From the IMG/VR virus record IMGVR_UViG_3300009180_002437: a stretch of 64,000 bases of DNA. One strand, written 5' to 3'. A model generated the notes under the pieces. It made no database searches. It was not told the origin of the DNA and was given only the letters and a program-made list of their open reading frames with translations. This document shows positions 44,056-62,276 of the stretch, piece after piece; the stretch's first letter is position 1, and each line of letters starts with the position of its first letter. The stretch is from a virus. Taxonomy: Duplodnaviria; Heunggongvirae; Uroviricota; Caudoviricetes. A program made the translations under genes and the position numbers.

Positions 44056-45654
44056 ATGACTCAAGATAACCTTACCGCCAAACAACTGGACTATGCGATT
44101 TTTCTTCCTGCATTGTCGGGTTTTTACTCCAGCTATATAGGCAAACAACGTGGCGGCGTTCACGTTGAACCTGCTCGTATGCCCGCCAATATCCAGGATA
44201 TGGAGATGCTTAATTGGCTCAACGACCAAAAGGCATTGTTCCCATATAAATGGAGTCTGTACTCCGCGGGGCATGCCAATTTAGATATCAATAAACAGGA
44301 CTGGGCCGAAGACATGGTGCGTAATCGTGATCCCAATACATTCCTGTTGGGTGATTCAGGCGGGTTCCAGATCGGCAAAGGTCGATGGGAAGGTGACTGG
44401 AAAAATCCTGCATGTCCCAAAGCAAAACAAAAACGTGAGCAAGTTCTTGCCTGGATGGATGCGTATATGGACTATGGCATGGTACTGGATGTGCCTACAT
44501 GGATTACCAACTTTCCCAATAGTCGCAAGGTCACTGGTATCAATACATATCAAGACGCTGTTGATGCTACGTATATTAATAATGAATATTTTATTGCCAA
44601 TCGTTCGGGCAAATGTAAATTTTTAAATGTACTACAGGGTGGCAATCAAACAGACGCACACAAGTGGTATAACACCATGAAGAAGTATTGTGATCCAAAA
44701 CAATATCCCGGCAAACATTTTAATGGCTGGGCACTGGGCGGACAACATACGTCTGATATTGAACTGGTATTAAAAAGAATAGTTACACTTAGGTTTGAAG
44801 GATTGCTTGAAGAAGGTCTACATGACTGGATGCACTTCCTGGGTATTGGTAGACTTGAGTGGGCGTTGATGTTGACCGACATTCAACGTGCTGTTCGTAA
44901 ATATCACAATCCAAACTTTACTGTTAGCTTTGACTGTGCAAGTCCATTCTTGGCTACTGCCAATGGACAAGTATATCATCAAATTGATATTCAGGATAGG
45001 AAGAAGTGGTGCTATCGCATGAGTCCTATTGTTGACAATAAAAAGTACGCGACTGACACACGCACATATCGTGATGCGGTGCTACAAGATGGCCTAATAA
45101 AACACTTTGACGAGAGCCCAATGAGTGCAAACTTCCTGGTTAAAGATATCTGTTACTATAAAGATGGAGTTCCTAAAACTCCGGCTGAATTGGGAACGGA
45201 AACTTTTGATCCAGCTAATCCAGCACATTACACAGTGATGCCTGATCTAAATAAAATAGGCAAGATAGGTAGAACAAGTTGGGACTCGTTTAGCTATGCA
45301 TTGCTAATGGGACACAATGTCTGGACTCATATTGAATCTGTGCAGCGTTCCAATCGTGAGTATGATGCTGGAATTTGTCCCACTATGCTGGTAGAAGAAA
45401 AGTTTGAACAGCTATATTTCAGAGATTTAGTAGATGCCATATTTTCTATTGACAATTTAGAAGATGCTCTTGCTTTCATTGACTATCATGATAAATTTTG
45501 GCAACGGTTCGTTGGCACTAAAGGCGCTACTGGAAAGAAAACTGTTAATTCACGTACTATGTTTGATGCGTTATTTGAAATCCCCGATTATACGCAAGTA
45601 GATGAATCTGAACTGGATGAGTCTAAACTTGAAGATCTGGAAAAATCCGCATGA
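44056..45654 (+). CDS. dpdA: TGT-family protein, DpdA-like 7-deazaguanine DNA transglycosylase
   Basis: LLGDSGGFQIG (the TGT DSGGFQ motif), GMVLDVPTW, FLNVLQGG, WALGGQ, and VSFDCASPF (the catalytic Asp region D-x-FDC). Confidence 0.75.
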   Translation: MTQDNLTAKQLDYAIFLPALSGFYSSYIGKQRGGVHVEPARMPANIQDMEMLNWLNDQKALFPYKWSLYSAGHANLDINKQDWAEDMVRNRDPNTFLLGDSGGFQIGKGRWEGDWKNPACPKAKQKREQVLAWMDAYMDYGMVLDVPTWITNFPNSRKVTGINTYQDAVDATYINNEYFIANRSGKCKFLNVLQGGNQTDAHKWYNTMKKYCDPKQYPGKHFNGWALGGQHTSDIELVLKRIVTLRFEGLLEEGLHDWMHFLGIGRLEWALMLTDIQRAVRKYHNPNFTVSFDCASPFLATANGQVYHQIDIQDRKKWCYRMSPIVDNKKYATDTRTYRDAVLQDGLIKHFDESPMSANFLVKDICYYKDGVPKTPAELGTETFDPANPAHYTVMPDLNKIGKIGRTSWDSFSYALLMGHNVWTHIESVQRSNREYDAGICPTMLVEEKFEQLYFRDLVDAIFSIDNLEDALAFIDYHDKFWQRFVGTKGATGKKTVNSRTMFDALFEIPDYTQVDESELDESKLEDLEKSA

Positions 45655-46562
45655 AGAGTCTTGTTATAGGTATGGGCATCGGCCAGTTATATCTTCATGT
45701 ATTAGTTGAGTTAGGTCACGAAGTTGTTACTGTTGATAGTGATGCTGCTAAATCAGCCGATTATACTAACGTAAAATCAGCATTACAGGAACACGCATAT
45801 TTTGATACAGTAAACATTTGTACTCCTAACTTTACTCATTTGGAGATAGCAAGGGCTGTAGCTAAACATGCCAGGATCGTGTTCATTGAAAAACCAGGGT
45901 TAGAAACTTCAGCACAATGGAAACATCTATGTAATGAGTTTCCCGACACACGTTTTATGATGGTTAAGAATAATCAATATCGTGATAATATTAATGTATT
46001 AGCACAACTAGCACATAAGGCAACGATTATTAATCTAACATGGAACAACAACGATCGTGTTCCTAACCCTGGCACTTGGTTTACCACGTATGATTTATCG
46101 TTTGGTGGAGTAAGTAGAGATTTAATTCCACACTTATTAAGTTTATTCCAATCGCTGTCAGGCTTTACTCATGATCAAGCTAAACTAGATTACGAAACAG
46201 TGGATCAACGTTGGCAATTAAAAGACTTAATCAAAACTGACTATGGCATTGTAAATCCTAATGGAGTATATGATGTCGAAGATCATATAGAATTGCATTT
46301 TAATGACGCACAAGGCCGTAAGTGGTTTATTGAAAGTGACTGGCGTACACTAAATGGTGACGATCGCAGTATTCTAATGATATTTGCGGATGGGTCTCGT
46401 TATTATTATGAATTAGGCTTGTGTCCTGAAGATGCGTATAAGCGTATGATTGATACTGCTGTTAAAATGACGGACGTCGACGCATACTGGCAACATCAAT
46501 ATGAGTTGGATATGTGGATACATAAAACAATTGAATCGCTTGATTTAGTGGGGGCAACATGA
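45651..46562 (+). CDS. Gfo/Idh/MocA-family NAD(P)-dependent oxidoreductase
   Basis: Rossmann N-terminus MKSLVIGMGIGQ plus ICTPNFTHLEIARAVAKHARIVFIEKP (the family EKP motif). Confidence 0.55.
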   Translation: MKSLVIGMGIGQLYLHVLVELGHEVVTVDSDAAKSADYTNVKSALQEHAYFDTVNICTPNFTHLEIARAVAKHARIVFIEKPGLETSAQWKHLCNEFPDTRFMMVKNNQYRDNINVLAQLAHKATIINLTWNNNDRVPNPGTWFTTYDLSFGGVSRDLIPHLLSLFQSLSGFTHDQAKLDYETVDQRWQLKDLIKTDYGIVNPNGVYDVEDHIELHFNDAQGRKWFIESDWRTLNGDDRSILMIFADGSRYYYELGLCPEDAYKRMIDTAVKMTDVDAYWQHQYELDMWIHKTIESLDLVGAT

Positions 46563-47464
46563 GAACAAGAATTTTATATACAGATGGGAAGGGTAAGTTT
46601 ACGGAAACAGGTTGGAATAAACCCGATCCCACCGCAGATGAGATTGAAGTCAAAGCCGTTATGACCGGAGTATGCCGCAGCGACATTGACATGATGACTG
46701 GGGGCTTTGGTCCATTACCCTTGGAAATGAGTGGGCACGAAGGTCTGGGCAAGGTTACTCGTGTTGGGGCAAATGTACTGGACGTACGGGTAGGCGACCT
46801 AGTCTCCACTCGCGGCGAGCCAGCATATTCCGACTACTACAATGTTCGGCAGGGAGAGTATGTATCGGTACCCGAGGCACATCCTCGATACATTATTGAG
46901 CCAGTGGCCTGTGGGTATAACCTCATCATGCAGACATATGACGAACTGCTGGCACGACATGGCGATGGCAGTCGATTGTTAATCCTGGGCAGTGGATTTT
47001 TGGCTTGGGTAGCATATAACTCATTAATCATAGAAGGATTGCGATTTGAGGTAGATGTTGTGGGCAGTAGCAACACCGCAATATGGAAAGATCGATTACA
47101 GGATAAACCCGTAGGGCAGTACGATGTTGTTATTGACCTAAGTGATAAGACTACTGTATTTGATAGCGATATATTGAATCTTGGTGCATTAGTAGTCATG
47201 GGCACACAGAAACAAGTCACAACTGATTTTAGTCAACTGCTATGGAAAGCATGTACCATGGTATTTCCCAGTCCCCGCAATCCGAGATTCCATTTAGTCA
47301 TGGCTCGTGCGGAGTTTTGGGTAAGTAAAGGTAACTTAGATGTTGACTACTTCTGGACGCAAGCGTATACTAGAGATAGTGAGTGGCAACAGGCTTTTGA
47401 CGATGGCTTAAATCGTCCCAAAAATTATAGCCGTGGTTATATTGTATGGCAGGATAACAAATGA
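46559..47464 (+). CDS. zinc-binding MDR (alcohol/threonine dehydrogenase-like) oxidoreductase
   Basis: GVCRSDIDMM ... SGHEGLGKV (GHE motif) plus a downstream Rossmann GSGFLAW. Confidence 0.55.
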   Translation: MRTRILYTDGKGKFTETGWNKPDPTADEIEVKAVMTGVCRSDIDMMTGGFGPLPLEMSGHEGLGKVTRVGANVLDVRVGDLVSTRGEPAYSDYYNVRQGEYVSVPEAHPRYIIEPVACGYNLIMQTYDELLARHGDGSRLLILGSGFLAWVAYNSLIIEGLRFEVDVVGSSNTAIWKDRLQDKPVGQYDVVIDLSDKTTVFDSDILNLGALVVMGTQKQVTTDFSQLLWKACTMVFPSPRNPRFHLVMARAEFWVSKGNLDVDYFWTQAYTRDSEWQQAFDDGLNRPKNYSRGYIVWQDNK

Positions 47465-47919
47465 TTAATCAACAACGACAACAAGCATTAGCAGAAGAAG
47501 CTATCCGTATTATGTATAAAGCAGAACGTAAAGTATGGGTAACCTTTCGCAAAGAAGGTATTCACAAGTATCCCGCAGCAGCAACAGATCCCTTACTAGC
47601 AACAGGTGATGAATATGATGTGTCATTTCTAGCTAATGAGCATAGACATATTTTCCACTTCCGTGTTTGGATTGATGTATTTCATAACGATCGTGATATT
47701 GAGTTTATTCAGTTTAAACGATGGTTAGAAAATCTTTACAAAGATGGTATTCTATCATTAGATTATAAATCATGCGAAATGATCGCAGATGATTTATATA
47801 TTAACATTTCTGCACGTTATCCTAAACGTGCGGTGTGGATTGAGGTCTCCGAAGATGGTGAGAACGGATGCCTCATTAAATACGAACTTTCTCGCCCTTC
47901 ACAAACAGTATTAATTTAA
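47461..47919 (+). CDS. hypothetical protein; possibly a second T-fold (PTPS/QueD-like) protein
   Basis: ANEHRHIFHFRVWIDV...EFIQFKRWLENL loosely parallels the QueD blocks CxxxHGHSF.V.LEI ... DFAELK. Confidence 0.25.
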   Translation: MINQQRQQALAEEAIRIMYKAERKVWVTFRKEGIHKYPAAATDPLLATGDEYDVSFLANEHRHIFHFRVWIDVFHNDRDIEFIQFKRWLENLYKDGILSLDYKSCEMIADDLYINISARYPKRAVWIEVSEDGENGCLIKYELSRPSQTVLI

Positions 47920-47929: not shown

Positions 47930-48151
47930 ATGGCAAAGTTGTCTTTCAAGCCTAACGAACGTGCAAATCAAACTCTAGACGATCTCGAGAAGTTTTTAGA
48001 ATTCTGTAGAGATTATGGGTATCGCTACAACGAGAACGATTTATATAATTTTAAAGCGTATGCTTGGCAACAATACAACAAATTTGTTCAGGGTAAAAAT
48101 GCCAAGAACATGTGGGCCGAAGATGCACGCAGATTTGGGAAAATAAATTGA
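47930..48151 (+). CDS. hypothetical protein
   Basis: A 73-aa ORF with Shine-Dalgarno site aaagga. Confidence 0.35.
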   Translation: MAKLSFKPNERANQTLDDLEKFLEFCRDYGYRYNENDLYNFKAYAWQQYNKFVQGKNAKNMWAEDARRFGKIN

Positions 48152-49203
48152 CAGTTTTTTTAGTTGATCTAGAAGCAGTCTCAACCCGGTATACCGGGCA
48201 GTGGAAGACTCATCTTCCACTGTTACTTGAAAAGGAAGGACATAATGTCCATATTATTGACGGACCTACTGATATCCCTAATGCTACAACTCCTGGTGCT
48301 TTTCTTAATTTTGGGGGCACCAACATTTACAAAGCTGCACAAGTTGAAGCTATGGGTAGACTCTTCACCCAGGGTGAAGTTAAGCCTGGCGATCATTTTA
48401 TCTTTACAGACGCTTGGCATCCTGGTATTATTAACCTTAGATACATGAGTGAGTTACTGAAAATTCCAGTAACTACACACGGTCTATGGCATGCAGGTAG
48501 CTATGATCCTGAAGATTTTCTAGGTCGGTTAATCGGCGATAAACCCTGGGTTAGGCATGCGGAAAAAAGTTTCTTTTTTGCGTTTGATCATAACTATTTT
48601 GCCACTGATTTTCATATCAAGATGTTTGCCAAGAACTTATTTGATGCAGTGGACAATGGTGCAAACCCTTACGTAACACGAACTGGGTGGCCCATGGAAT
48701 ATATGGATGAACTACTTACCCCATACAAGAATCTAAAGAAGCGTAATCTTGTATTATTTCCACATCGCATTGCCCAGGAAAAACAAGTGGAAATATTTCG
48801 GGATCTAGCATCTAAATTACCACAGTATGAATTCATTGTGTGTCAGGATCAAGAACTAACTAAACATGAATACCATACGTTATTAGGTGAAGCAAAAGTA
48901 GTATTCAGTGCTAACCTACAGGAAACACTGGGTATCAGTTGTTACGAGGGTGCAGTTGTTAATGCTATCCCCATGGTACCTGATAGACTTAGTTATAGAG
49001 AAATGTATTATGATGAATTTAGATATGATTCTACATTTACTCAAAATTATAAATTTTATGAAAAAAGCAGACCGTATCTAGCTAAAAAACTCATGTCATA
49101 CATGAGCAACTATGAATCATTGCTGCCTTTACTGGAACAACAAGCAGCCAAATTGTCCAAGGATTTCTTTTCGGCCGGTAATTTACTATTAAATATAAGA
49201 TGA
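48148..49203 (+). CDS. GT4-like glycosyltransferase
   Basis: C-terminal ETLGISCYEGAVVNAIPMV (E-x7-E-like GT-B motif). TTG at 48148 overlaps the upstream TGA, with GGGAAAA upstream. Confidence 0.45.
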   Translation: MTVFLVDLEAVSTRYTGQWKTHLPLLLEKEGHNVHIIDGPTDIPNATTPGAFLNFGGTNIYKAAQVEAMGRLFTQGEVKPGDHFIFTDAWHPGIINLRYMSELLKIPVTTHGLWHAGSYDPEDFLGRLIGDKPWVRHAEKSFFFAFDHNYFATDFHIKMFAKNLFDAVDNGANPYVTRTGWPMEYMDELLTPYKNLKKRNLVLFPHRIAQEKQVEIFRDLASKLPQYEFIVCQDQELTKHEYHTLLGEAKVVFSANLQETLGISCYEGAVVNAIPMVPDRLSYREMYYDEFRYDSTFTQNYKFYEKSRPYLAKKLMSYMSNYESLLPLLEQQAAKLSKDFFSAGNLLLNIR

Positions 49204-49910
49204 AAATTTTAGTATGTGGTGCCTCAGTAGTAATGCCTGACCTGTCAGCCTCATGGACTCAACGCACTTGGGTACATTATTTACAACAAAAATTAAACTG
49301 TGAGATCGTAAATATAGCACGAGCAGGATGTGGAAACCAGTATATTCACGATGCAGTAATCGCAGAGGTTACTGAAAGGCCATATGATTTAGTTTTAGTA
49401 TCTTGGAATATTGCAAATCGAGTAGAATTTAGAACTCATCAAAAACTACCAATAACAGACTGGATTAGAAAAGGAAAAAATACTAATCCACACACCGAAT
49501 ATATGCAGTCAGAATGGATATGGCCACATACTGCTGACAATATAATGCCTTCTGAAGAAGCGGCGGAAAATAAAAATGAATTATTCCGACGTCGATTTCT
49601 CACTATTCCAACCTATGAAATCAATCATCAGATAATGTTAACCCAAGCATTGTCACTTCAGTCTACACTTAAATCCTACGGTATACCATATACCTTTGTC
49701 TGGTACCGAACGCTGTTACGGCTCAAACAGTTTAAAAATTATTACAATAAAATTGACTGGAATTTCGTGCATCCTGATAGTCTTTTTAGACAGGCCAAAA
49801 ACAAGAAGATGTGGGATGACAAATCTCTACATCCTACTGATGAAGCGTATAGATGGTATGCCGATGAGATGTACAAGTTCCTTAATGACAGGAATCTAAT
49901 AAAGCCCTAG
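49200..49910 (+). CDS. SGNH/GDSL-like hydrolase (block V DxxH present; block I is a GAS variant)
   Basis: ILVCGASVV and DKSLHPTDEAYRWYA. Confidence 0.4.
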   Translation: MKILVCGASVVMPDLSASWTQRTWVHYLQQKLNCEIVNIARAGCGNQYIHDAVIAEVTERPYDLVLVSWNIANRVEFRTHQKLPITDWIRKGKNTNPHTEYMQSEWIWPHTADNIMPSEEAAENKNELFRRRFLTIPTYEINHQIMLTQALSLQSTLKSYGIPYTFVWYRTLLRLKQFKNYYNKIDWNFVHPDSLFRQAKNKKMWDDKSLHPTDEAYRWYADEMYKFLNDRNLIKP

Positions 49911-50961
49911 ATATTTTTCCTGCTGGGCTAAGTGGAATACTATCAACACACTTGAGTACTGCTGGTTTGCAATGTTTACCAAGGCTGATCAAAAAGTTCT
50001 TGATAGTATCTTCATCGCATGTACCTACATATAGACACTTAACATGATCTGTACCAAATACCACACATTCCTGCATACCCGGAATGTTCTGTAGTAACTG
50101 TCGTTCGATACTCACAGGATTAATTTTAGAACCCTTGACGTTAATTTGATCACGACTACGACCCAGTATACGATAGTAACCCATTTCATCTTGGTCAGCT
50201 AGGTCTCCTGTATCGTACCAATCACCATGACAAATATTAAAACCCTTGATCATCAAATGACCATTTTCAATTTTAGCTTCTATGCCATCAGGCAATCCTA
50301 CTGTGCCAACTCGTTGTGGGCCGGCAAGTGGATTAGTGAAACAGTGACTCATTGCTTCTGTCATACCAAACGCTTCTACTATAGGAACATTAAACTTTGC
50401 GCTTAATTTGTGATATAAATCGTGTGACATAGGAGCACTGGCAGAACGTATAAATCTTAAATTGTCAAAATTTAATTCAGCAATAACTCTTAGTACATCA
50501 GGAATGGCAGTTATAAAAGTTGGCTTAGTAGAGGGAAAGGTTTTAATGTCTTTCATAGTAACGTAGGTAGTTTCGCATCCTGCTAATTGCGCCGCCCAGT
50601 AAAAACCCTGCCCATGCGCATGCCATAAGCTCATGATGCTGGTATATCTATCGTTAGCTGTCAAGTTGTATGATCTAACAATAGTAGCAGCCATGTTGTT
50701 TAGATGTGCTTGTGTAAAGCTACAAAACTTACTATCTCCTGTGGTGCCTGATGTATACCAAAGTACTCTTTCGTTAGGATAGTCATTACCATTTCTAACT
50801 TTTTCTTGATCTCGAGTGATGTATAAACTCCAGTCGGAATTTTCCAATAGGTATCGGTTCCTAGCCTCAGGGGCATTAGGATTTATGATCATTATCGAAT
50901 GATCTTTTAACTGGGGAATAAAATCTTGTGGATTGTCCACACATAAGACGGCACGTTTCAT
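49882..50961 (-). CDS. adenylate-forming enzyme (acyl/aryl-AMP ligase, DltA-sized)
   Basis: AMP-binding motif WYTSGTTGDSKF, plus YDTGDLA and RSRDQINVKGSKI. The likely start is MKRAVLCVD at 50961; the ORF-track start 50997 lies upstream. Confidence 0.65.
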   Translation of the reverse strand: MKRAVLCVDNPQDFIPQLKDHSIMIINPNAPEARNRYLLENSDWSLYITRDQEKVRNGNDYPNERVLWYTSGTTGDSKFCSFTQAHLNNMAATIVRSYNLTANDRYTSIMSLWHAHGQGFYWAAQLAGCETTYVTMKDIKTFPSTKPTFITAIPDVLRVIAELNFDNLRFIRSASAPMSHDLYHKLSAKFNVPIVEAFGMTEAMSHCFTNPLAGPQRVGTVGLPDGIEAKIENGHLMIKGFNICHGDWYDTGDLADQDEMGYYRILGRSRDQINVKGSKINPVSIERQLLQNIPGMQECVVFGTDHVKCLYVGTCDEDTIKNFLISLGKHCKPAVLKCVDSIPLSPAGKISRALLDSCH

Positions 50962-50968
50962 GCAGATA

Positions 50969-50997
50969 TTTATATAGCCATAATGGTAGCGTATCAA
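50969..50997 (-). promoter_or_regulatory. sigma70-type promoter on the minus strand (TTGATA-17-TATAAA)
   Basis: Read as the reverse complement of 50969-50997. It diverges from the plus-strand promoter. Confidence 0.45.
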
Positions 50998-51493: not shown

Positions 51494-52186
51494 ATGGCGG
51501 GATACTTAGGTGACAGCATTCGTCGCAGAATGCAAGCAGATGGTAAGAGATTTTGGGCCGGCGACAACATCAGTGACTACGTTACTGAAGAAGATAAAAG
51601 GATTCTAATTAACGAAGCCACAGAGGCGTTCGAAACTGTACTAGAAAGTCTATTGATCGACATTGACGCTGATCCCAATAGTCAAGGCACAGCGCATAGA
51701 TTGGCCAAAATGTATTTTAACGAAATTATGGCAGGCAGATATGAGCCTGCCCCAGATTGTACAGCGTTTCCAAATGATTCGGAGAATAGATATGAAGGTA
51801 TGTTGGTCGTGCGCAGTGAGTTGCGTAGTATGTGCAGTCACCACCATCAGCCTGTTACTGGTGTTGCCTACATTGGAATCCTTGCCGCAAATAAACTTAT
51901 CGGGCTATCTAAGTATACTAGGATTGCTCAGTGGTGTGCTCGCCGTGGTACTCTGCAGGAAGAGCTCTGTAACGACATCGCCCGAGAAATAATGCGAGCA
52001 ACCGACAGTGAGGATGTGGGTGTTTATATTCAAGCCATACACGGCTGCTGCGAAAATCGCGGAATTATGGCACACAGTAGTTTAACACAGACTACAGTAT
52101 TGAAAGGTGCGTTCAAGGAACACATGGATACAAAGAAGGAATTCTTTGATAATATTAAACTACAACAAGACTTTGCCCCACGATAG
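51494..52186 (+). CDS. folE: GTP cyclohydrolase I
   Basis: MCSHHHQPVTGVAYIGI...GLSKYTRIAQWCARRGTLQEEL aligns with the FolE CEHH/GLSK/R-QE active-site block. Confidence 0.75.
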   Translation: MAGYLGDSIRRRMQADGKRFWAGDNISDYVTEEDKRILINEATEAFETVLESLLIDIDADPNSQGTAHRLAKMYFNEIMAGRYEPAPDCTAFPNDSENRYEGMLVVRSELRSMCSHHHQPVTGVAYIGILAANKLIGLSKYTRIAQWCARRGTLQEELCNDIAREIMRATDSEDVGVYIQAIHGCCENRGIMAHSSLTQTTVLKGAFKEHMDTKKEFFDNIKLQQDFAPR

Positions 52187-53639: not shown

Positions 53640-54284
53640 ATGGCAAATAACCCCCACCAGCAAGCACTAAGTGATTACTTCGATGCTCGCATCAATCATT
53701 ATCATCACACAAAATCTGGTAACACAGTAGGGCCAGTCTTGCAAAAAAGTCTAGCAGATAACGTAGAGCAGGCATTGAGTAGCGTGCCATCAACTGTGCA
53801 ATACAAGTACACCAGTACAAAAGAATATCACGACGCTTTTCCCTGCGCCTACAGACAGTGGCGAGCAGATAGCCACTGTAATTTAATACATGGCTACAGC
53901 TTTAGTATGAAGTTTTACTTTGGCACCAACGACCTGGATGTACGCAACTGGGCAGCAGACTACGGTGGACTCAAAGAGCTAAAAGACACACTAGAAGATC
54001 AGTTTGATCATACATTGCTAGTAGCAGAAGATGATCCAGAACTGGAGACATTTAAACTGCTGCAATCTAAGAACATGGCCAAGCTGACTATTTTGCCACG
54101 TTTAGGTTGTGAAGGATTAGCTGACATGCTGTACCGGTATGTTAATGGCGTTTATATTCCTGACATGTGGGGAACGGCAGAAGCAGATAGACTTTGGTGC
54201 TATCGTGTAGAAGTACGCGAAACACAAAGCAATATGGCTTACAGAGAAGGACATAGAGAATGGCATGAGGATTTATTAATATGA
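53640..54284 (+). CDS. queD: QueD-like 6-carboxytetrahydropterin synthase (PTPS/T-fold) with an N-terminal extension
   Basis: SHCNLIHGYSFSMKFYFG and DYGGLKELKDTLEDQFDHTLL parallel the QueD blocks KCGRLHGHSF.V.LEI and DFAELK...LDHHYL. The second zinc His of HGH is replaced by Tyr. Confidence 0.5.
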   Translation: MANNPHQQALSDYFDARINHYHHTKSGNTVGPVLQKSLADNVEQALSSVPSTVQYKYTSTKEYHDAFPCAYRQWRADSHCNLIHGYSFSMKFYFGTNDLDVRNWAADYGGLKELKDTLEDQFDHTLLVAEDDPELETFKLLQSKNMAKLTILPRLGCEGLADMLYRYVNGVYIPDMWGTAEADRLWCYRVEVRETQSNMAYREGHREWHEDLLI

Positions 54285-54589
54285 GTTCCAAAGAATATGA
54301 CGAAACCCTACAACTCGATCGTAGGGTAATGGAAGCTCTGGGCATACTGCAAGAGGAGTGTGCTGAGGTTATAGTTGAAGTTAGTAAATGTCGGAGATTT
54401 GGAATCGACAGTGAACATTATACTACCAAAGAACTGCACAAAGATATGCTAGCACAGGAGATCGGCGATGTAATGTGCATGGTGGATATATTGGTTGAGC
54501 AGGGTGTAATTGATAGAGCTGAACTGATTCTGGCCAGGGAACGTAAAAGAGAAAAACTTAAACGATGGTCCAAGATCTTTGAAGATTAG
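54281..54589 (+). CDS. MazG-like nucleoside triphosphate pyrophosphohydrolase
   Basis: All-alpha EE..E...GD pattern: LQEECAEVIVEV ... AQEIGDVMCMVDIL. Confidence 0.5.
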   Translation: MSSKEYDETLQLDRRVMEALGILQEECAEVIVEVSKCRRFGIDSEHYTTKELHKDMLAQEIGDVMCMVDILVEQGVIDRAELILARERKREKLKRWSKIFED

Positions 54590-54646: not shown

Positions 54647-55474
54647 ATGGCCAAGTCCACAAATGAATATAAAATAGCAGTATTATTACCCACCAGAGGT
54701 AGAACTACAGCACTAAAGCTCAGTATTATTAGTATTTTTAACCGTGTACTTGACCTAGATGGAGTCCAACTATTACTGGGATTCGATAATGATGACGAAG
54801 TTGGGTTAGGTTATTTCTCCACAGATATTCAACCCTGGATGGAAGAAAAAGGAATCAACTATACGGTAATGGTTTTTGAACCCATGGGATATAACGGTCT
54901 AAATCGTTACTACAATGGGCTGGCGGCGCAGGCAACCGCCGATTGGCTATTTGTATGGAATGATGATGCACTCATGGAGACAACAGGCTGGGACAAAGTT
55001 GTAACCAGCCATACTGGCGAGTTCAAACTACTTAAAATTCACGTACATCGTGAACATCCGTATTCCATCTTCCCCATCTATCCCAAGGAATGGTATGACT
55101 TATTTGGATTCGTGTCACGTCACCAAATGACCGATGCCGAACTTAGTCAAATTGCATATATGCTGGACATTATGGAAATTGTGGAAATTTATGCCACACA
55201 TGATAGACATGATTTAACTGGCAATAATAACGACACTACATATCAAAAACGTGATATGCTGGAAGGTAATCCTAATAATCCACTGGACTTTCATCATAAA
55301 TCATATGGAAATGGCAGACTAATGGACGCTGAACATATCTCTACGCATTTAGCCGCAAAAGGTGTAGATCTTACTTTTTGGCACAATGTTAAACTGGGAA
55401 AACAAGATCCCTGGGAAAAACTTAGGGCCAATGATATCAACAAACAAATGACACAAACACCGGTAAAGAGATAA
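54647..55474 (+). CDS. putative glycosyltransferase (GT-A-like, DD motif)
   Basis: KIAVLLPTRGR ... FVWNDDA. The call is weak. Confidence 0.3.
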   Translation: MAKSTNEYKIAVLLPTRGRTTALKLSIISIFNRVLDLDGVQLLLGFDNDDEVGLGYFSTDIQPWMEEKGINYTVMVFEPMGYNGLNRYYNGLAAQATADWLFVWNDDALMETTGWDKVVTSHTGEFKLLKIHVHREHPYSIFPIYPKEWYDLFGFVSRHQMTDAELSQIAYMLDIMEIVEIYATHDRHDLTGNNNDTTYQKRDMLEGNPNNPLDFHHKSYGNGRLMDAEHISTHLAAKGVDLTFWHNVKLGKQDPWEKLRANDINKQMTQTPVKR

Positions 55475-56703
55475 TGAGTAAAATTACAGAAAGTAACCAT
55501 ATGTGGCAATGCCTAATTACTGGGGCGCCGGTGACAAGGGTATTGGATTTTGGGCAGCATGCCTACGCCGATACCTTTATCGCCGAGGATCAGTTAAAAT
55601 TAGCTGAACCTGTATTCCCATTAGAAGTACATCTAAATACCGAATCAGGCGGATTGCAACTGGGCTACGTGAGCGATGCTAAGGATAGATATAACTTATA
55701 CAGCTATAGCTACACCAGTTCAAACTCCACCACCGCCAGGAATCATTGGGACGAGTATGCTGCAACAATCAAAGGTCGATTCAAGCCCCAGGGCTTGGTG
55801 GTGGAGATCGGCAGTAATGATGGATACCTAATTAAACAATTTCAAGATGACGGGGTAACCGCATTAGGTGTTGACTCATCCAAAGCCATGTGTGACATTG
55901 CCAAAGCTGCAGGTGTTAAAACAGTCAAAGGTCTGTTTGACATATCGCTAGCTGATAAATTGAAAGAAAAACATGGCCTTGCCAAGGTGATCATGGCCAA
56001 CAACGTGTTTAATCACGCTAACGATCCCATTAACTTTGCTATTGGCATAACACACCTATTGGACAAAGATGGTATATTTGTTTTTGAAGTCCCTTACTGG
56101 GCCAGTATGGTAGAAAGCGGCCGCTTTGTGGATATGGTATACCACGAACACATTTCTTACTTTACCATTAAAAGTGTTTGGAATTTATTGCAACAAGTTG
56201 GCTTAACTATCGCGGACTACGATGTAGTCGATTATCATGGTGGTAGCCTACGTGTGATAGCCAAAATGGATACTGGTGATGGAACACCTATTCTTGTGCA
56301 GTCGGCTATTGAACGAGAAACGGCCATGGGGTTATTCAATCATAAGTTCTACAAGAAGTTGCAGGCTAAATTTGTACAACAACGTAATACCTGGCTCCGT
56401 AACTTTTATCAAATATTGGCTGATGAACCTGATGCTGTCATTATCGGAGTCGGTGCCGCAGCCAAGGCCAATACCTGGCTTACCTGGCATAAATTAGATA
56501 AAACATTACTGCATTGTATTACTGATGCTAGTGAATTCAAACAGGGTAAGTACACCCCACTATCACGTATCCCAATTAAAAGTGATGATGAGTTTGCGCT
56601 ACACGAAAAACCATATGCATTGGTGTTAAGCTGGAACATTGGAGAACCACTTAAACAAGCATTATTAAAAATTAATCCCAACACAAGGTTCATATCACAA
56701 TGA
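55474..56703 (+). CDS. NDP-hexose C-methyltransferase (TylC3/CloU-like: zinc-binding N-domain plus class-I MTase)
   Basis: N-terminal CLITGAPVTRVLDFGQHAYADTF (putative Zn-binding domain). VVEIGSNDGYL (motif I). C-methyltransferase-type C-terminal domain. Confidence 0.6.
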   Translation: MSKITESNHMWQCLITGAPVTRVLDFGQHAYADTFIAEDQLKLAEPVFPLEVHLNTESGGLQLGYVSDAKDRYNLYSYSYTSSNSTTARNHWDEYAATIKGRFKPQGLVVEIGSNDGYLIKQFQDDGVTALGVDSSKAMCDIAKAAGVKTVKGLFDISLADKLKEKHGLAKVIMANNVFNHANDPINFAIGITHLLDKDGIFVFEVPYWASMVESGRFVDMVYHEHISYFTIKSVWNLLQQVGLTIADYDVVDYHGGSLRVIAKMDTGDGTPILVQSAIERETAMGLFNHKFYKKLQAKFVQQRNTWLRNFYQILADEPDAVIIGVGAAAKANTWLTWHKLDKTLLHCITDASEFKQGKYTPLSRIPIKSDDEFALHEKPYALVLSWNIGEPLKQALLKINPNTRFISQ

Positions 56704-57107
56704 AATATTATAATGTCGCAATTAACACCGAGCCCGGACTAGGCTCATTCCAAGACGATCGTGGATCTATCGTAGATATCTTTTATAAAAAGGCCATCAA
56801 TCACGGATGTATCATTAGTAATAATCCCGGTGCCGTTCGTGGTAATCACTATCATAATCATACTGTACAGTATACCTATGTTATTGCAGGTGACCTAACT
56901 TATTACTCACAACCAGCAGACAAATCCGAACCAGTATCCACTTACGTGGCAGTTACTGGAGACGTCATTATCAGTGATCCCAAAGAAATTCATGCTATGA
57001 AAGCTGGTGAGTTTGGATGTGTTTTTATAGCCTTTGCCGAAGGCCCACGTGGTGGCGAAGATTACGAAACAGATACAGTAAGAGTTGATTCTATTATTCC
57101 TGAATGA
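56700..57107 (+). CDS. cupin-fold sugar 3,4-ketoisomerase (FdtA/WxcM-like)
   Basis: DDRGSIVDIFYKK ... AVRGNHYHNH matches FdtA E-RGS...RG-H-H. Confidence 0.55.
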   Translation: MKYYNVAINTEPGLGSFQDDRGSIVDIFYKKAINHGCIISNNPGAVRGNHYHNHTVQYTYVIAGDLTYYSQPADKSEPVSTYVAVTGDVIISDPKEIHAMKAGEFGCVFIAFAEGPRGGEDYETDTVRVDSIIPE

Positions 57108-57700
57108 AAACAGTAGTTATATTTGGAGGAAGTGGTGGGATAGGTAAAGCCACATGTGAAGTCTTTGCCGCGGCTGGGTATACAGTACACCCTGTTAGTA
57201 GTAAACAAATTGACTTTTTATGGGAACAAAGTCAATTTCAAGTAGATAACTTGTTGAAACAAATTTTGCCCGACGTGGTGGTCAACTGCGTTGGGCATTT
57301 TGATGACGCCAACAAAGAGCCTCATTTTAAAACAATGAACATTAACGTAGGCTCTAACTGGAGTATCATTAAACATTACATAGAAAACGTTAGTACCAAG
57401 CCAGTTAAAATTATCATGGTGGGTTCCAGTGCTTACAAGGCCGGTCGAAAGGCCTATATTTTGTACGCTGCTAGTAAGGCAGCACTATATAATATGTGGC
57501 AAGGCGCTTGCGAGCATTTTACGGGGTCAAATGTGTCATTAGGTTTGATTAACCCAGTAAGAACTCGTACACCGATGATAGATATGTCAACTAAAGATAT
57601 TTGTCTAGAGCCAATGGATGTAGCACAAGCAATTTTAAATATGACATCAGTCAGTGGTAACGAACTGGTTGATATGAAGTATCCAGAGGAAACAAAATGA
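57104..57700 (+). CDS. short-chain dehydrogenase/reductase (SDR)
   Basis: VVIFGGSGGIGKA (TGxxxGIG) and YAASKAAL (YxxxK). Confidence 0.6.
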   Translation: MKTVVIFGGSGGIGKATCEVFAAAGYTVHPVSSKQIDFLWEQSQFQVDNLLKQILPDVVVNCVGHFDDANKEPHFKTMNINVGSNWSIIKHYIENVSTKPVKIIMVGSSAYKAGRKAYILYAASKAALYNMWQGACEHFTGSNVSLGLINPVRTRTPMIDMSTKDICLEPMDVAQAILNMTSVSGNELVDMKYPEETK

Positions 57701-58473
57701 AAATTGGAATTATAGGCAAGGGAACGGTAGGCAAGGCAGTATACGAAGGGCTTAATCACTTGGGACATGAAATGAGTTTCTTTGATCCTGCGTATGATGG
57801 GTCAACACTCGGTGATGTGTTGGGTACAGATTGTGTGTTTATCAGTGTACCAACTAACCAAGCAGCAAATGGAGATTGTGATACCAGTATCGTGGAAAGT
57901 GTTATTTCAGCATTACACGCAGCCGAATATACAGGACTAGTCAGTATCAAAAGTACAGTAGTTCCCGGCACTTGTGATCGTTTATCAGCAGCATATCCTA
58001 AACTACGTATTTGTTCAGTACCAGAATTTCTCCGTGCCAAGACAGCATTAGCTGACTTTATGTATAACCATGATTTACTAATTATCGGCAGCACTCGTGA
58101 TGAAGATTATGTCATGATGAGAAAAATACATGGCAACTTGCCTAAGAATGTGGCTTGTGTTAGGCCAGCAGAAGCAGAAGTTGTAAAATACTTTAACAAC
58201 GTTAATCACGCTACACAAATTATATTTGCCAATATTGCCTATGCTGTATGTAAGAAGCTGGGTGTTGACTATGACAATGTATATAACGCTATCATTCAGC
58301 GTGATAGTATTAATCCAGCTTACCTAATGTGTAATGAGAATCTGCGTGGATTTGGCGGTCATTGTTTGCCCAAGGATACCAGTGCTTGGAACAATTTAGT
58401 TAAAAGTTTAGGGCTAGAGTTTTCAATGATCCAAGCCCTAATTGATGACAACGCAAAGGTGAACAATGAGTAA
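57697..58473 (+). CDS. UDP-glucose/GDP-mannose dehydrogenase-family protein (short, lacks the C-terminal UDP-binding domain)
   Basis: MKIGIIGKGTVGKAV Rossmann fold, and the catalytic GFGGHCLPKDT (GGxCxxKD). Only 258 aa. Confidence 0.55.
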   Translation: MKIGIIGKGTVGKAVYEGLNHLGHEMSFFDPAYDGSTLGDVLGTDCVFISVPTNQAANGDCDTSIVESVISALHAAEYTGLVSIKSTVVPGTCDRLSAAYPKLRICSVPEFLRAKTALADFMYNHDLLIIGSTRDEDYVMMRKIHGNLPKNVACVRPAEAEVVKYFNNVNHATQIIFANIAYAVCKKLGVDYDNVYNAIIQRDSINPAYLMCNENLRGFGGHCLPKDTSAWNNLVKSLGLEFSMIQALIDDNAKVNNE

Positions 58474-59365
58474 AATCTTAATCACAGGTGCTAGTGGACT
58501 GTTAGGGACGGAATTTTGTCACCAACTTAAGGCAGCTGGACATGAAGTATGGGCAGTAGATAATCATAGCCGTAGTTCGACTATCCCTCCATGTGACGAA
58601 TGGCATAAGATGGATCTATTGGCAAATGATAGATTTATTGGACTAGCATCATTGCCCCGTGACTTTGACTACATTTATCACTATGGTGCAATCAACGGCA
58701 CTACTAACTTTTATAAGATGCCCAACAAGGTATTGGAAAACAACTTTGTCAGTGATATCAATATTTTCAACTTTGCCAAGAAGTGTACTAATCTTAAACG
58801 ATTGGTATACGCCTCAAGTTCGGAAGTGGTAGCAGATGATCCAGTTAGTCCCGTACCAGAAAACTCAGATGTATTCATCAAGGATATACATAACGCACGT
58901 TGGAGTTATCGTCTGGCCAAAATTACCAGTGAAAACTTTTTGGCTAATTCTGATCTACCATATGTTATGATACGTTATTTTAATGTGTATGGTGCAAATT
59001 CAAAGCAGGGGCATTTTCTCGGTGACCAAATTGACAAGATTAAAAATGGTGTCTTTTCGGTTATAGGTTCACATGAAACACGTTCGTTCTGTCATGTGAG
59101 CGATGCTATTCGTGCCAGTATCTATGTTGCTGAAAATGCCAATCGTGTACTGGTAAACATTGGTAATGATCGTGAAATATCAATTGGTGATGCGGTTCGT
59201 GTTATAGCAACCGAACTTGGGCATCCTGATGCTGTATTCGAAGAATTGCCCAGCATGTCGGGATCGGTTGCTAATCGGCGTCCTGACATTACCAAACTAC
59301 GTGAAATTATGCCCGATTATTCGCCCATGAGTTTTGAAGAAGGTATTCGGCAAATTTTAAGTTGA
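58466..59365 (+). CDS. NAD-dependent sugar epimerase/4,6-dehydratase (extended SDR)
   Basis: ILITGASGLLG and YRLAK (YxxxK). Confidence 0.6.
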   Translation: MSKILITGASGLLGTEFCHQLKAAGHEVWAVDNHSRSSTIPPCDEWHKMDLLANDRFIGLASLPRDFDYIYHYGAINGTTNFYKMPNKVLENNFVSDINIFNFAKKCTNLKRLVYASSSEVVADDPVSPVPENSDVFIKDIHNARWSYRLAKITSENFLANSDLPYVMIRYFNVYGANSKQGHFLGDQIDKIKNGVFSVIGSHETRSFCHVSDAIRASIYVAENANRVLVNIGNDREISIGDAVRVIATELGHPDAVFEELPSMSGSVANRRPDITKLREIMPDYSPMSFEEGIRQILS

Positions 59366-59390: not shown

Positions 59391-59420
59391 TTCTAAATAC
59401 ATTATCCCATAGGAGCTCTA

Positions 59421-59975
59421 ATGAAAAAAGTTCATTACACAGATCAAGATATTCGCAGTTTTGTTCATAAAATTATCCGTGATATGCGTCGTGATAATTG
59501 GCAACCTGATTACATCGTAGGACTCACTCGCGGCGGTCTTACACCAGCTAACATGCTGAGTCAATATTTAGAAATCCCCATGGAATGTTTAAAGGTCAGT
59601 TTACGTGACAGCAGCACACAATCCGAAACTAATTGCTGGATGTCGGAAGATGCTTTTGGGTACGTGGATACTGCTGTTATCCCCAGGCCAGAAGAGTCCA
59701 TTACTACAGATCCCAGCCGTCGCAAAAAAATTCTTATTGTAGATGACATCAATGATACTGGTGCTACACTTAATTGGATCAAGAAAGATTGGCCCGGTAG
59801 TTGTTTGCCCGATGATCCTGCGTGGAATGAGATTTGGGGACAGAATGTTCGCTTTGCTGTGCTGGTGGACAATTTGGACAGTAAATTTCATGATGTTGAC
59901 TACACGGGCACTGAGATCAATAAAGCCGAAGAAGATGTTTGGTGTGTATTCCCCTGGGAAAATTGGTGGGTATGA
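59421..59975 (+). CDS. type-I phosphoribosyltransferase, xanthine-guanine PRTase (Gpt)-like
   Basis: PRPP loop KILIVDDINDTGATL. The TRGGLTPANMLSQYL and C-terminal FPWENWWV segments parallel E. coli Gpt. Confidence 0.6.
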   Translation: MKKVHYTDQDIRSFVHKIIRDMRRDNWQPDYIVGLTRGGLTPANMLSQYLEIPMECLKVSLRDSSTQSETNCWMSEDAFGYVDTAVIPRPEESITTDPSRRKKILIVDDINDTGATLNWIKKDWPGSCLPDDPAWNEIWGQNVRFAVLVDNLDSKFHDVDYTGTEINKAEEDVWCVFPWENWWV

Positions 59976-60200
59976 AAACAGATTGGATCACCATTACCTG
60001 CTCACACAACCTGTGTCTGTGGAGCGACTGTTATAAATGGTGTCTGAGTACGTGGGGGCGTAATAACGAATGGGTCTATATGGGCCCGGGTAAATTTCAT
60101 TTTAAGAACTCGTGTGATGCGATGTTTTTTAGATTGAAATGGTTATAAAGCACTTTCCAGGAAACTGGTGAGTAATTGATTTTTAAAATAGGAGATTATT

Positions 60201-60905
60201 ATGTTTAATACAAATCAGATAGATACTAATACAGTAGAATTAAGTTTTCGGTCAGCAGAAGAAGTCAATAACGCAATGAGTCGCGTCTATGGATATATGG
60301 GGTTAGCAGTAATTGTATCAATGTTGGTAAGTTACTTTGTGGGAACTAGCCCGGAGTTACTAAAATTCTTTTTCACGGGTATTACAAAGTGGATCGTAAT
60401 CTTTGCTCCACTAGCAGCAGTATTTGGTATTGCTATGATATTGGCACGTAGCCCGGGCAAAAGTACTGCTCTACTATGCCTGTATGGTTTTGCGGCACTA
60501 ATGGGCCTGAGCTTTGCTACAATCTTTGCTGTGTTCACCATGGGAAGTATTGTCAGTGCATTTATGGGTGCTGCTGTATTATTTGGCACTATGAGTTTTT
60601 ATGGTTATTTTACTAAACAGAGTCTAGATAGTCTTGGTAAGTTTATGTTTATTGGATTAATCGCCATTGTTATTGCCAGTATAGTTAATATCTTTATTGG
60701 TAGTACTGTAATGCAAATGGTTATTAGTGCGTTAGCTATCATTATCTTTCTTGGATTAACTGCGTATGATACACAACAAATCCGTGAAATGGTCAGTGTT
60801 GACTCTAGTTCAGTAGTTGAAGTAACCGGTGCGTTGACATTATACCTGGACTTTATTAACATTTTCCTCAATTTGTTAAACTTGTTTGGCAATAAAAACG
60901 ACTAA
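60201..60905 (+). CDS. Bax-inhibitor-1/YccA (TMBIM) family 7-TM membrane protein
   Basis: A 234-aa polytopic protein with the family N-terminal pattern (MSRVYGYMGLAV...) and 7 hydrophobic helices. Confidence 0.55.
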   Translation: MFNTNQIDTNTVELSFRSAEEVNNAMSRVYGYMGLAVIVSMLVSYFVGTSPELLKFFFTGITKWIVIFAPLAAVFGIAMILARSPGKSTALLCLYGFAALMGLSFATIFAVFTMGSIVSAFMGAAVLFGTMSFYGYFTKQSLDSLGKFMFIGLIAIVIASIVNIFIGSTVMQMVISALAIIIFLGLTAYDTQQIREMVSVDSSSVVEVTGALTLYLDFINIFLNLLNLFGNKND

Positions 60906-60906
60906 C

Positions 60907-61269: not shown

Positions 61270-61441
61270 TATGTGTTATACTTATAGACATGACTATGGG
61301 CTCGAAAAACCTACTGGAGATAACTTTGCTAGTAAGTTATCATCAGGCACCACACAGGCAGAGCGCGAATCACTATGGCGTCAAATGGCGCAGATATTTG
61401 ATAACGATATATTACCACATATGGAATTTAAAAATGAGTAA
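61241..61441 (+). CDS. hypothetical protein
   Basis: A 66-aa ORF. Confidence 0.3.
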   Translation: MKTREQIITSMCYTYRHDYGLEKPTGDNFASKLSSGTTQAERESLWRQMAQIFDNDILPHMEFKNE

Positions 61442-62276
61442 ATTAAAAGTAGCAGAGTTGTTTTATAGTATTCAAGGTGAAGGCAGATATATGGGAGTAC
61501 CCTCAATCTTCCTACGTACATTCGGCTGTAATTTTACCTGCGATGGCTTTGGTATGCCACGCGGAGAGAAAAGTCAAGAAAGACATAATATTGTAGTAGC
61601 TAATTACCAAACATATAATGAGCTGCCATTAGTGAGTTCTGGCTGTGACTCATATGCCTCCTGGATGCCGGAATTTAAGAATCTAAGTCCATTAATGGAA
61701 ACTGATGGCATCGTAGATCGCATTATGGAGATCTTACCGTATAAACAATGGGCAATGGAACATCTAGTCATTACAGGTGGCGAGCCATTGTTAGGTTGGC
61801 AACGTGCTTATCCAAACTTGCTTAACCATGATAAGATGAAAGACTTGCGTGAAATTACTTTTGAAACTAATGGCACTCAGCCGTTAACGCCAGAGTTCAA
61901 ACATTTTCTAGGTGAATGGACTGCTGAACATTGGCATAGAGAAGTTACATTCTCGATCAGTGCTAAACTTAGTAATTCAGGCGAGTTACGTGAAGATGCT
62001 ATTAAACCTGAAGTTGTACTGGAATATCAAGACACAGGCTATGCTTACCTAAAGTTTGTAGTGGCTACTGAAGAAGATGTCGAGGAAGCCCTGGCAGTTA
62101 CACAGATTTATCAAACAGCAGGATTTAAAGGTCCAGTTTATTTGATGCCAGTCGGCGGGGTTGAAAGTGTATATGCACTTAACAATCGTCGTGTAGCAGA
62201 ACTAGCCATGGCGAACGGATTACGTTACAGTGATCGTTTACAAGTTCCACTCTTTAAAAATGAGTGGGGAACTTAA
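61434..62276 (+). CDS. queE: 7-carboxy-7-deazaguanine synthase (radical SAM)
   Basis: MSKLKVAELFYSIQGEGRYMGVPSIFLRTFGCNFTCDGFG matches the QueE N-terminus and its CxxxCxxC-type cluster motif. Confidence 0.7.
   Translation: MSKLKVAELFYSIQGEGRYMGVPSIFLRTFGCNFTCDGFGMPRGEKSQERHNIVVANYQTYNELPLVSSGCDSYASWMPEFKNLSPLMETDGIVDRIMEILPYKQWAMEHLVITGGEPLLGWQRAYPNLLNHDKMKDLREITFETNGTQPLTPEFKHFLGEWTAEHWHREVTFSISAKLSNSGELREDAIKPEVVLEYQDTGYAYLKFVVATEEDVEEALAVTQIYQTAGFKGPVYLMPVGGVESVYALNNRRVAELAMANGLRYSDRLQVPLFKNEWGT

Follow-up and report, generated by a model that had tools for sequence, protein, structure and literature searches.

What does a large phage make with a 7-deazaguanine pathway from which QueC is missing, and does the product enter its DNA? 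The question is raised by a 64-kb stretch of the Caudoviricetes record IMGVR_UViG_3300009180_002437 (the window below, part of a genome that is likely several hundred kb long), in which a 532-amino-acid (aa) protein resembling tRNA-guanine transglycosylases (TGTs) is encoded within 18 kb of genes for FolE, a QueD-like protein and QueE. We consider it likely, from homology, structural modeling and gene context, that the phage uses this module to put a 7-deazaguanine base in place of guanine in its own DNA via the QueC-independent "DG" branch, with the 532-aa protein as the predicted DpdA-like inserting enzyme. Coordinates and supporting matches of all features are collected in Table 1.

The absence of QueC was examined at three levels: (i) the SGGxD[ST] PP-loop motif was not found in the six-frame translation of the window, (ii) QueC, QueF, YhhQ and the Ntn-amidotransferase of Vibrio phage 2.275.O had no BLASTP match in the window, and (iii) neither QueC nor QueF was present in any of 80 related IMG/VR loci. 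These loci were retrieved with DpdL, mapped by phmmer with flanks of at most 10 kb; they belong to one lineage and are not independent observations. The initial annotation was thus correct that the window lacks QueC; it took the gap for a puzzle, overlooking a small gene for a 152-aa T-fold protein, DpdL. DpdL is a QueD paralog in which LxxxHRHxF replaces CxxxHGH, and its role as a decarboxylase of 7-carboxy-7-deazaguanine (CDG) has so far only been proposed (PMC10516641). In Cellulophaga phage phiST, which encodes FolE, QueD, QueE, DpdL and DpdA3 and has no QueC, 2'-deoxy-7-deazaguanosine (dDG) replaces dG completely (PMC10516641). The window protein carries the signature L-ANE-HRH-I-F, an exact LxxxHRHxF in the alignment, and is recognized by BLASTP as a homolog of phiST gp040 (36% identity, E 4e-15), PA5oct EST35_0318 (53%) and the DpdL of Acidovorax phage ACP17 (ASD50405; 58%, E 4e-48). 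Since DpdL defines the published QueC-independent dDG branch (PMC10516641), the absence of QueC is explained, and the module is, as judged from the sequences, a case of that branch: FolE, QueD, QueE, DpdL, then DpdA.

The three other pathway genes named in the initial annotation, FolE, QueD-like and QueE, were borne out by profile searches (Table 1). The FolE translation shows the zinc-site motifs CSHH and HGC. The QueD-like protein scores 57 bits against a cut-off of 22.4 with the Pfam PTPS model and is 32% identical to phiST QueD and 53% identical to ACP17 QueD. It was also considered as a candidate for DpdL itself and was rejected, as it aligns to phiST QueD and not to phiST DpdL. In the QueE open reading frame (ORF), homology begins at an internal ATG at 61434, from which the product is 48% identical to the annotated QueE of Synechococcus phage BUCT-ZZ01.

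For the 532-aa protein, no meaningful match was obtained in Pfam (E<=0.01), in PHROGs, in PDB with phmmer, or in PDB with hmmsearch using two family profiles; the PDB profile matches were limited to a kallikrein and the C-terminal domain of DnaG, with E values of 0.8-1.9, and we treated them as noise. Metagenomic homologs are abundant, with more than 6,600 at E<=1e-3 on contigs of up to 371 kb, and none of the 120 listed bears a Pfam domain. The relationship becomes visible in structure. An AlphaFold2 model built with 37 homologs (predicted local distance difference test score, pLDDT, 81; predicted template-modeling score, pTM, 0.83) was compared with PDB by Foldseek, and the top 44 matches were all tRNA-guanine transglycosylases (E 2e-7 to 1e-4, probability 1.0), including the bacterial enzyme of Z. 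mobilis, human QTRT1 and archaeal ArcTGT. Among viral models in BFVD, the neighbors are other phage TGT-like proteins: a 596-aa protein of the same length as the Vibrio phage 2.275.O homolog, a "tRNA guanine transglycosylase" of Achromobacter phage Motura, Vibrio phage nt-1 R9TGF0, which falls in the length class of nt-1 DpdA2 (Foldseek E 8e-10, 14% identity), and, more distantly, phiST M4SLA5 (259 aa, DpdA3; Foldseek E 1.6e-3).

The translation contains the blocks LLGDSGGFQIG, VLQGGN, WALGGQ and VSFDCASP. The initial annotation had listed DSGGFQ, QGG, LGG and a D-x-FDC catalytic block as hallmarks of a DNA-acting DpdA; all are present except that the last reads S-F-D-C, the upstream Asp not being there. 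D100 of DSGG and D293 of FDC are invariant in a seven-sequence alignment including ACP17 DpdA2, phiST DpdA3 and Z. mobilis TGT, and also across the clade alignment that adds PA5oct, Phosso and 2.275.O. In Z. mobilis TGT the catalytic pair is D102 (DSGG) and D280 (FDC). Thus, the blocks do place the protein in the TGT superfamily with intact catalytic residues, but alone they cannot tell enzymes that act on DNA from those that act on tRNA; the DNA-acting assignment rests on context.

Profile-profile comparison separates the candidate families further. A first profile of relatives had low diversity (effective number of sequences, Neff, 1.7), and a clade profile was made by adding PA5oct, Phosso and 2.275.O. 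With hhalign, the clade profile matched ACP17 DpdA2 at 93.8% probability (E 1.8e-7), the alignment spanning the stretch between DSGG and SFD (183 core columns), against 3.7% for Z. mobilis TGT; a Pfam search of the same protein and BLASTP with ACP17 DpdA2 had been blank. The match to phiST DpdA3 (CGPG_00065, gp042) was 1.9% with the low-diversity profile and 6.3% with the clade profile. Membership in DpdA3 was therefore rejected on the 6% hhalign result, the likeness being one of fold only. The 532-aa protein is accordingly modeled as a TGT-fold enzyme with intact catalytic aspartates, whose closest assigned relative is probably DpdA2.

The protein is larger than its TGT relatives for more than one reason. 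The initial annotation had attributed the extra length to a C-terminal extension; there is indeed a helical region reaching to ~487, after which residues 488-532 form an acidic, disordered tail, and in addition there are insertions at ~300-400, the position of the TGT zinc subdomain. Neither the model nor the alignment shows a PUA domain or a zinc subdomain. The tail (nt 45520-45654) is kept in character among relatives, with the pattern DDSxLDExKLDxLE, and the helices preceding it give an insignificant profile match (E ~1) to the C-terminal helicase-binding domain of DnaG primase. It may be a replisome-docking tail.

Compared with Z. mobilis TGT and PF01702, the protein shares the TIM-barrel, the motif order DSGG, LD, QG, GG, LGxG, FDC and both aspartates, whereas identity is ~12%, the zinc site is lacking, and the insertions, the acidic tail and the phage replication-module context are its own. 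The gene follows that of a family-B DNA polymerase (PolB), and no tRNA genes were found in the 64-kb window; both observations support a DNA role. We take DNA, not tRNA, to be the probable target.

The closest cultured relative of the protein is found in the Pseudomonas jumbo phage PA5oct (Wroclawvirus; 36% identity, 81% coverage), where the genes are syntenic: PolB ... virion protein, TGT-like, glycosyltransferase (GT), DpdL ... phosphoribosyltransferase (PRTase)-like, QueE ... RNaseH. PA5oct DNA resists restriction enzymes with G-containing sites, and a modified G has been suspected in a preprint that names QueE and PTPS and no transglycosylase (PMC12191111). PA5oct differs from the window in having VLSGS in place of VLQGG, LxxxHFHxF in DpdL and none of the sugar cassette described below; its relevant genes, except QueE, are annotated "hypothetical". 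In ACP17, the cluster reads QueD, FolE, x, DpdA2, GT, DpdL, QueE, with DpdL, QueD and GT being 58%, 53% and 34.5% identical to the window proteins, and the order DpdA2, GT, DpdL, QueE mirrors that of PA5oct and the window (DpdL 47461-47919, GT 48148-49203). ACP17 differs by a DpdA2 of 424 aa and by a compact operon without nucleoside diphosphate (NDP)-sugar tailoring genes; QueC is missing from its entry in a 2019 genome-wide table, and we found no report of ACP17 DNA modification in the literature. The phiST module resembles that of the window in (i) FolE, a CxxxHGY QueD, QueE and no QueC, (ii) DpdL with LxxxHRHxF, (iii) an adjoining MazG-like gene, (iv) a homologous purine-type PRTase (31% identity), and (v) a position beside DNA polymerase genes. 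It differs in that DpdA3 has 259 aa against 532 aa and is linked to the window protein by structure only (Foldseek E 1.6e-3), in the absence of a GT4 partner and of sugar genes, and in compactness, the window genes being scattered over 18 kb.

A TGT-like homolog is linked to 7-deazaguanine genes in 75 of the 80 IMG/VR loci, in PA5oct and in Vibrio phage 2.275.O. The last of these, listed in 2019 as having the pathway without a DpdA, encodes a 596-aa homolog, NVP2275O_468 (L002 11905-13695), whose gene is immediately followed by those for QueF, YhhQ, QueC, an Ntn amidohydrolase and FolE. Because this homolog adjoins QueF, YhhQ and QueC, the transglycosylase clade appears to serve pathways of the preQ0/preQ1 type as well.

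The general gene order in the 80 loci is PolB, p308, p258, the TGT-like gene, then an oxidoreductase pair (GFO and ADH) or other genes, DpdL and GT; an epimerase and a DegT aminotransferase in most; FolE ... QueD, sometimes with MazG and a second GT-like gene; sometimes a cassette of C-methyltransferase, cupin, SDR, sugar dehydrogenase and epimerase; and finally PRTase, QueE and an exonuclease. Two further claims of the initial annotation do not hold against these comparisons. The genes that separate FolE, QueD and QueE had been called unrelated; DpdL, GT, the MazG-like gene and PRTase lie among them and recur with pathway genes in other phages. The locus had also been called an island; GC content is flat (0.38-0.41) over the flagged 18 kb and the genes show synteny with those of the PA5oct replication module, so we describe it as an embedded module without a compositional boundary. 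A horizontally acquired island was rejected on the same even composition and on synteny with relatives. The central proposal of that annotation, a 7-deazaguanine DNA-modification module around a DpdA-like enzyme, stands, because the fold, the remote homology to DpdA2 and the synteny agree.

Several observations weigh against this assignment. At the level of the transglycosylase, the Pfam TGT model (PF01702) misses the 532-aa protein, BLASTP with ACP17 DpdA2 gives no match to it, and the TGT zinc motif CxCxxC...H is missing, the segment being gapped or replaced in the alignment. At the level of the pathway, the QueE ORF reaches only 19.4 bits with Pfam Radical_SAM, under the cut-off of 29.5, and a plain CxxxCxxC motif was not found in it. 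The QueD-like protein has CNLIHGY (CxxxHGY) where the canonical enzyme has CxxxHGH, and an upstream His is replaced by Tyr. The CxxxHGY variant is common to QueD of the window, phiST, ACP17 and BUCT-ZZ01, and in these proteins the His that serves E. coli QueD as its first zinc ligand is missing; the "QueD" of the examined DpdL phages may therefore differ catalytically from canonical QueD. QueC could be encoded elsewhere in the several-hundred-kb genome, outside the window. Co-expression of dpdL and dpdA of phiST and of ACP17 in E. coli gave no dDG (PMC10516641). Finally, since GT and sugar genes are conserved with the module, plain dDG may not be its end product.

Taking these points into account, we propose the following scheme, in which we infer every enzymatic step and the final chemical structure from homology and context. 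FolE, QueD and QueE would convert GTP to CDG, and DpdL would strip its carboxyl group to give 7-deazaguanine. The 532-aa TGT-fold enzyme would then exchange guanine in duplex DNA for this base; Asp293 would be the nucleophile, and Asp100 would serve in general acid/base catalysis. The product would be dDG or a derivative of it, blocking restriction enzymes.

The identity of the final base may depend on the GT gene that accompanies DpdL. Neither Pfam nor PHROG matched this GT. Its structural model (pLDDT 75) gave 124 Foldseek matches in PDB at E<=1e-3, led by GT4/GT5-type enzymes and including glycogen synthase, BshA, PglA and tetrahydrobiopterin (BH4) glucosyltransferase (E 1e-8 to 1e-5). The E-x7-E motif (ETLGISCYE; E259, E267) is invariant in the GT alignment. 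By tblastn, the GT adjoins DpdL or lies within 4 kb of it in six other cultured lineages, namely Phosso, PA5oct, ACP17, Xanthomonas BUDD/X1, Burkholderia BCSR5 and Synechococcus BUCT-ZZ01, so that the pair is kept in at least seven phage lineages counting the window (pair coordinates: L001 16617-18140; L009 6969-8381; L010 5690-7219; Phosso PV764938 150428-151872). In 76 of the 80 IMG/VR loci the next gene after DpdL is a GT, and the remaining 4 end there.

Genes for NDP-sugar tailoring occur around this pair in several arrangements. Between GT and FolE, an epimerase and a DegT aminotransferase are found in 52-54 of the 80 loci; in 13 loci the DpdA-like gene is separated from DpdL by GFO and ADH, which always occur as a pair. 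A homolog of the second GT-like protein comes after QueD in 30 loci; in the window this protein had no match in Pfam, NCBIfam or PDB sequences. The five-gene cassette at 55474-59365, with overlapping start and stop codons, is repeated in the same order in 5-9 loci. All NCBIfam names for the sugar, AMP-binding and PRTase genes come from matches below the curated cut-offs. From the gene orders in the 80 loci, we regard the window's NDP-sugar genes (54647-59365) and its GFO/ADH pair (45651-47464) as lineage variants of a sugar-tailoring set that accompanies the GT. It is probable that the GT4 enzyme, NDP-sugar genes, MazG-like protein and PRTase are part of one system with DpdL and the DpdA-like enzyme, and the linkage of GT, sugar genes and PRTase to DpdL is outside what the published pathway explains.

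It is possible, though we would stop short of calling it probable, that the end product is a glycosylated 7-deazaguanine, the purine counterpart of glucosylated and arabinosylated hydroxymethyl-pyrimidines, with the GT4 enzyme (48148-49203) placing a sugar on the free base or on the base in DNA. The second GT-like protein (54647-55474) may take part, the NDP-sugar genes would supply lineage-specific sugars (amino-deoxy, C-methyl-branched), and the PRTase would either turn the expelled guanine back into GTP that FolE can use or synthesize a nucleotide of the 7-deazapurine. PA5oct, Phosso, ACP17, BUCT-ZZ01 and their relatives could carry such a base too. This is favored by the recurrence of GT next to DpdL even in the minimal operons of ACP17 and BUCT-ZZ01, by the sugar genes on either side of the pair and by the preserved E-x7-E motif. 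The failure of dpdL and dpdA alone to give dDG in E. coli (PMC10516641) is in keeping with it too. The huimycin enzyme HuiG (PF13439), a glycosyltransferase acting on a free 7-deazapurine base, offers a precedent. HuiG places its sugar on the 2-amino group. The huimycin and tubercidin routes of Actinomycetota resemble the window by pathway logic, namely a CDG- or preQ0-derived base and a GT4-type HuiG or the PRTase TubE, and differ in being soluble secondary-metabolite routes without a transglycosylase. Against glycosylation, an O-acceptor is not obvious in dDG, phages of the phiST group do not need this GT to make plain dDG (the GT4 partner was missing there by tblastn), sugar cassettes of large phages can serve host-surface or virion glycosylation, and the N-terminal acceptor-binding domain of the GT was modeled with low confidence.

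The PRTase gene bears on a different route. The product is nearest to xanthine/hypoxanthine-guanine PRTases; the closest NCBIfam models, all below cut-off, are those of xanthine (6.6e-10) and hypoxanthine PRTases. Homologs were found in 7 of 50,697 phage records at 1e-5, and 6 of the 7 encode DpdL (homolog coordinates: L010 11303-11764; L004 25281-25709); in BUCT-ZZ01 the gene is placed inside the Que operon, between QueE and QueD. The role of the enzyme may be to salvage the guanine that is released or to form a 7-deazapurine nucleotide. If the latter, the PRTase could join CDG or 7-deazaguanine with phosphoribosyl pyrophosphate (PRPP) on the way to 7-deaza-dGTP, which PolB would incorporate while the MazG-like protein depletes dGTP, leaving the TGT-like protein a secondary role such as patching residual G. 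7-Deaza-dGTP is a good polymerase substrate. The MazG-like start overlaps the QueD stop in the window, and in phiST the MazG gene adjoins FolE and DpdL; the PRTase TubE of tubercidin synthesis uses CDG and PRPP (PMC6112128). We nevertheless consider such a nucleotide-level route unlikely: every such phage has a conserved transglycosylase whose catalytic Asp residues are intact, and post-replicative insertion has been argued for (PMC10516641); the window showed no kinase or reductase dedicated to this route; the PRTase was detected in only 7 of the 80 loci, though most of these stop short of its position; and it could equally salvage exchanged guanine to GTP for FolE.

That CDG itself is inserted, giving 2'-deoxy-7-carboxy-7-deazaguanosine (dCDG), with DpdL acting otherwise, for example on DNA-borne CDG or on a pterin, seems to us quite improbable. 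DpdL activity is only proposed, DpdA3 may insert CDG, and VH7D DpdA2 does so at low efficiency in a queC mutant (PMC10516641), but phiST, with the same gene set, has dDG and not dCDG, and DpdL is universally kept beside the transglycosylase in this lineage. Least credible of all is the absence of any DNA modification, with the TGT-like protein acting on tRNA or the genes making a soluble 7-deazapurine or pterin glycoside or nucleoside, even though TGTs that act on tRNA are the closest proteins of solved structure, the fold matches of the GT include BH4 glucosyltransferases, and the PRTase and GT sets resemble tubercidin and huimycin clusters. Against it, the nearest sequence relative is a phage DpdA2, the 532-aa protein has neither PUA domain nor zinc subdomain, its gene lies in a tRNA-free window in the replication module after PolB, and PA5oct DNA is restriction-resistant at G-containing sites.

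One further gene of the module encodes a shortened AMP-binding enzyme. It is the sole minus-strand gene in the module, is ~120 N-terminal residues short, and is rare, being found in 1 of the 80 loci and in the relative L007 (71% identity). Whether it belongs to the system is uncertain; it could activate the CDG carboxylate.

The phage is a large one, and the module is part of an array of plus-strand genes, downstream of clamp loader, ATP-dependent protease, DnaJ, PhoH, lysis cassette and PolB genes, and the window had no near-identical DNA among the 50,697 phage records. Between PolB and the DpdA-like gene there is a function-unassigned pair encoding 308-aa and 258-aa proteins, which occupies this position in 68-70 of the 80 loci. 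Homologs of the 258-aa protein are 2.275.O _465 and PA5oct EST35_0314, the latter a protein that mass spectrometry detected in virions. In L005 and in 8 of the 80 loci this region contains an additional 357-aa radical-SAM protein without a counterpart in the window; in L005 its gene (8931-10004) is immediately upstream of the DpdA-like gene. A Bax inhibitor-1/YccA-family membrane protein is encoded between PRTase and QueE and was seen in 3 of the 80 related loci. Elsewhere in the window, a set of auxiliary genes, from the OmpA-like to the dCMP-deaminase-like protein in Table 1, is typical of very large phages, and a reverse-oriented block at 22055-24291 includes a GH19-type endolysin and a holin-like protein with three transmembrane segments. 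A local compositional anomaly at 36001-38000 (GC 0.487 against ~0.41 elsewhere, AT skew 0.33) sits within the ORF 35265-38630 (1121 aa), for which no PHROG match was found.

Table 1. Features of the 64-kb window, with the 7-deazaguanine module and its neighbors first and the remaining genes after it
Feature	Coordinates	Strand	Basis and remarks
DpdA-like, divergent TGT-fold transglycosylase (predicted)	44056-45654	+	ATG start, 532 aa; remote DpdA2 relative
GFO/IDH/MocA-family oxidoreductase	45651-46562	+	PF01408, 1.3e-7; start overlaps DpdA-like stop; accessory
Zn-alcohol-dehydrogenase-like oxidoreductase (ADH_N)	46559-47464	+	PF08240, 4.7e-10; overlaps neighbors; accessory
DpdL, T-fold QueD paralog, proposed CDG decarboxylase	47461-47919	+	152 aa; PHROG 17812, "unknown"
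GT-B (GT4-like) glycosyltransferase	48148-49203	+	TTG start overlaps stop of preceding small ORF
Shortened AMP-binding (adenylate-forming) enzyme	49882-50997	-	PF00501, 6e-28; NCBIfam acyl-CoA-ligase-like, below cut-offs
FolE, GTP cyclohydrolase I, first pathway step	51494-52186	+	Pfam PF01227, 1.1e-38; PHROG 2197, 2.7e-45
QueD-like 6-carboxytetrahydropterin (CPH4) synthase, T-fold	53640-54284	+	PF01242, 2.5e-15; PHROG QueD-like, 1.4e-35
MazG-like nucleoside triphosphate pyrophosphohydrolase	54281-54589	+	PHROG 4856, 7e-19; Pfam MazG weak, 0.0027
Second glycosyltransferase-like protein, weakly supported	54647-55474	+	275 aa; PHROG 14945, 5e-5
C-methyltransferase	55474-56703	+	Pfam; NDP-sugar cassette
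Cupin	56700-57107	+	Pfam; NDP-sugar cassette
SDR	57104-57700	+	Pfam; NDP-sugar cassette
Nucleotide-sugar dehydrogenase-like protein	57697-58473	+	NCBIfam TIGR03026, 1.5e-39, below cut-off
Epimerase/dehydratase	58466-59365	+	Pfam; NDP-sugar cassette
Type I phosphoribosyltransferase	59421-59975	+	PF00156, 2.2e-16, 60 bits against cut-off 26.3
Bax inhibitor-1/YccA-family membrane protein	60201-60905		Pfam, 5e-53
QueE, 7-carboxy-7-deazaguanine synthase, radical SAM	61434-62276 (in ORF 61290-62276)	+	PHROG 2076 QueE-like, 1.4e-54
Family-B DNA polymerase (PolB)	39688-42348		Upstream of DpdA-like gene
308-aa protein, function unassigned	42349-43275		
258-aa protein, function unassigned	43276-44052		PHROG 12062
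OmpA-like protein	251-790		
SPFH/Band-7 protein	1199-1996		
2OG-Fe(II) oxygenase	3292-3864		
Fe/Mn superoxide dismutase	9520-10083		
PhoH	19712-20497	-	
GH19-type endolysin	22760-23389	-	
Holin-like protein	23767-24291	-	
DnaJ	24403-25200		
ATP-dependent protease	25264-27543		759 aa
dCMP-deaminase-like protein	32938-33627		

The module belongs to a known pathway type (PMC10516641). What goes beyond that type is a divergent, unannotated and abundant transglycosylase clade, the linkage of DpdL to GT and sugar genes, and the linkage of the PRTase to DpdL phages. The main caveat on novelty is that the clade may already be filed under DpdA2 in the supplementary tables of PMC10516641; the main texts of the literature yielded nothing relevant on PA5oct and DpdA, on DpdL or on glycosylated dDG, the 2023 supplementary tables not being covered by this search.

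Modification of DNA with 7-deazaguanines is a major means by which phages withstand restriction enzymes and CRISPR. Neither Pfam nor PHROGs assigns the transglycosylase clade to a family, and its members are labeled "hypothetical" wherever checked, yet thousands of them occur in metagenomes. By homology, the clade would provide the inserting enzyme that had been lacking for PA5oct-like therapeutic jumbo phages, which have restriction-resistant DNA, and probably also that for Vibrio phage 2.275.O. The linkage of DpdL with GT may explain why dpdL and dpdA failed to produce dDG in E. coli and, if glycosylation takes place, predicts a new hypermodified purine in the DNA of phages that are already in culture.

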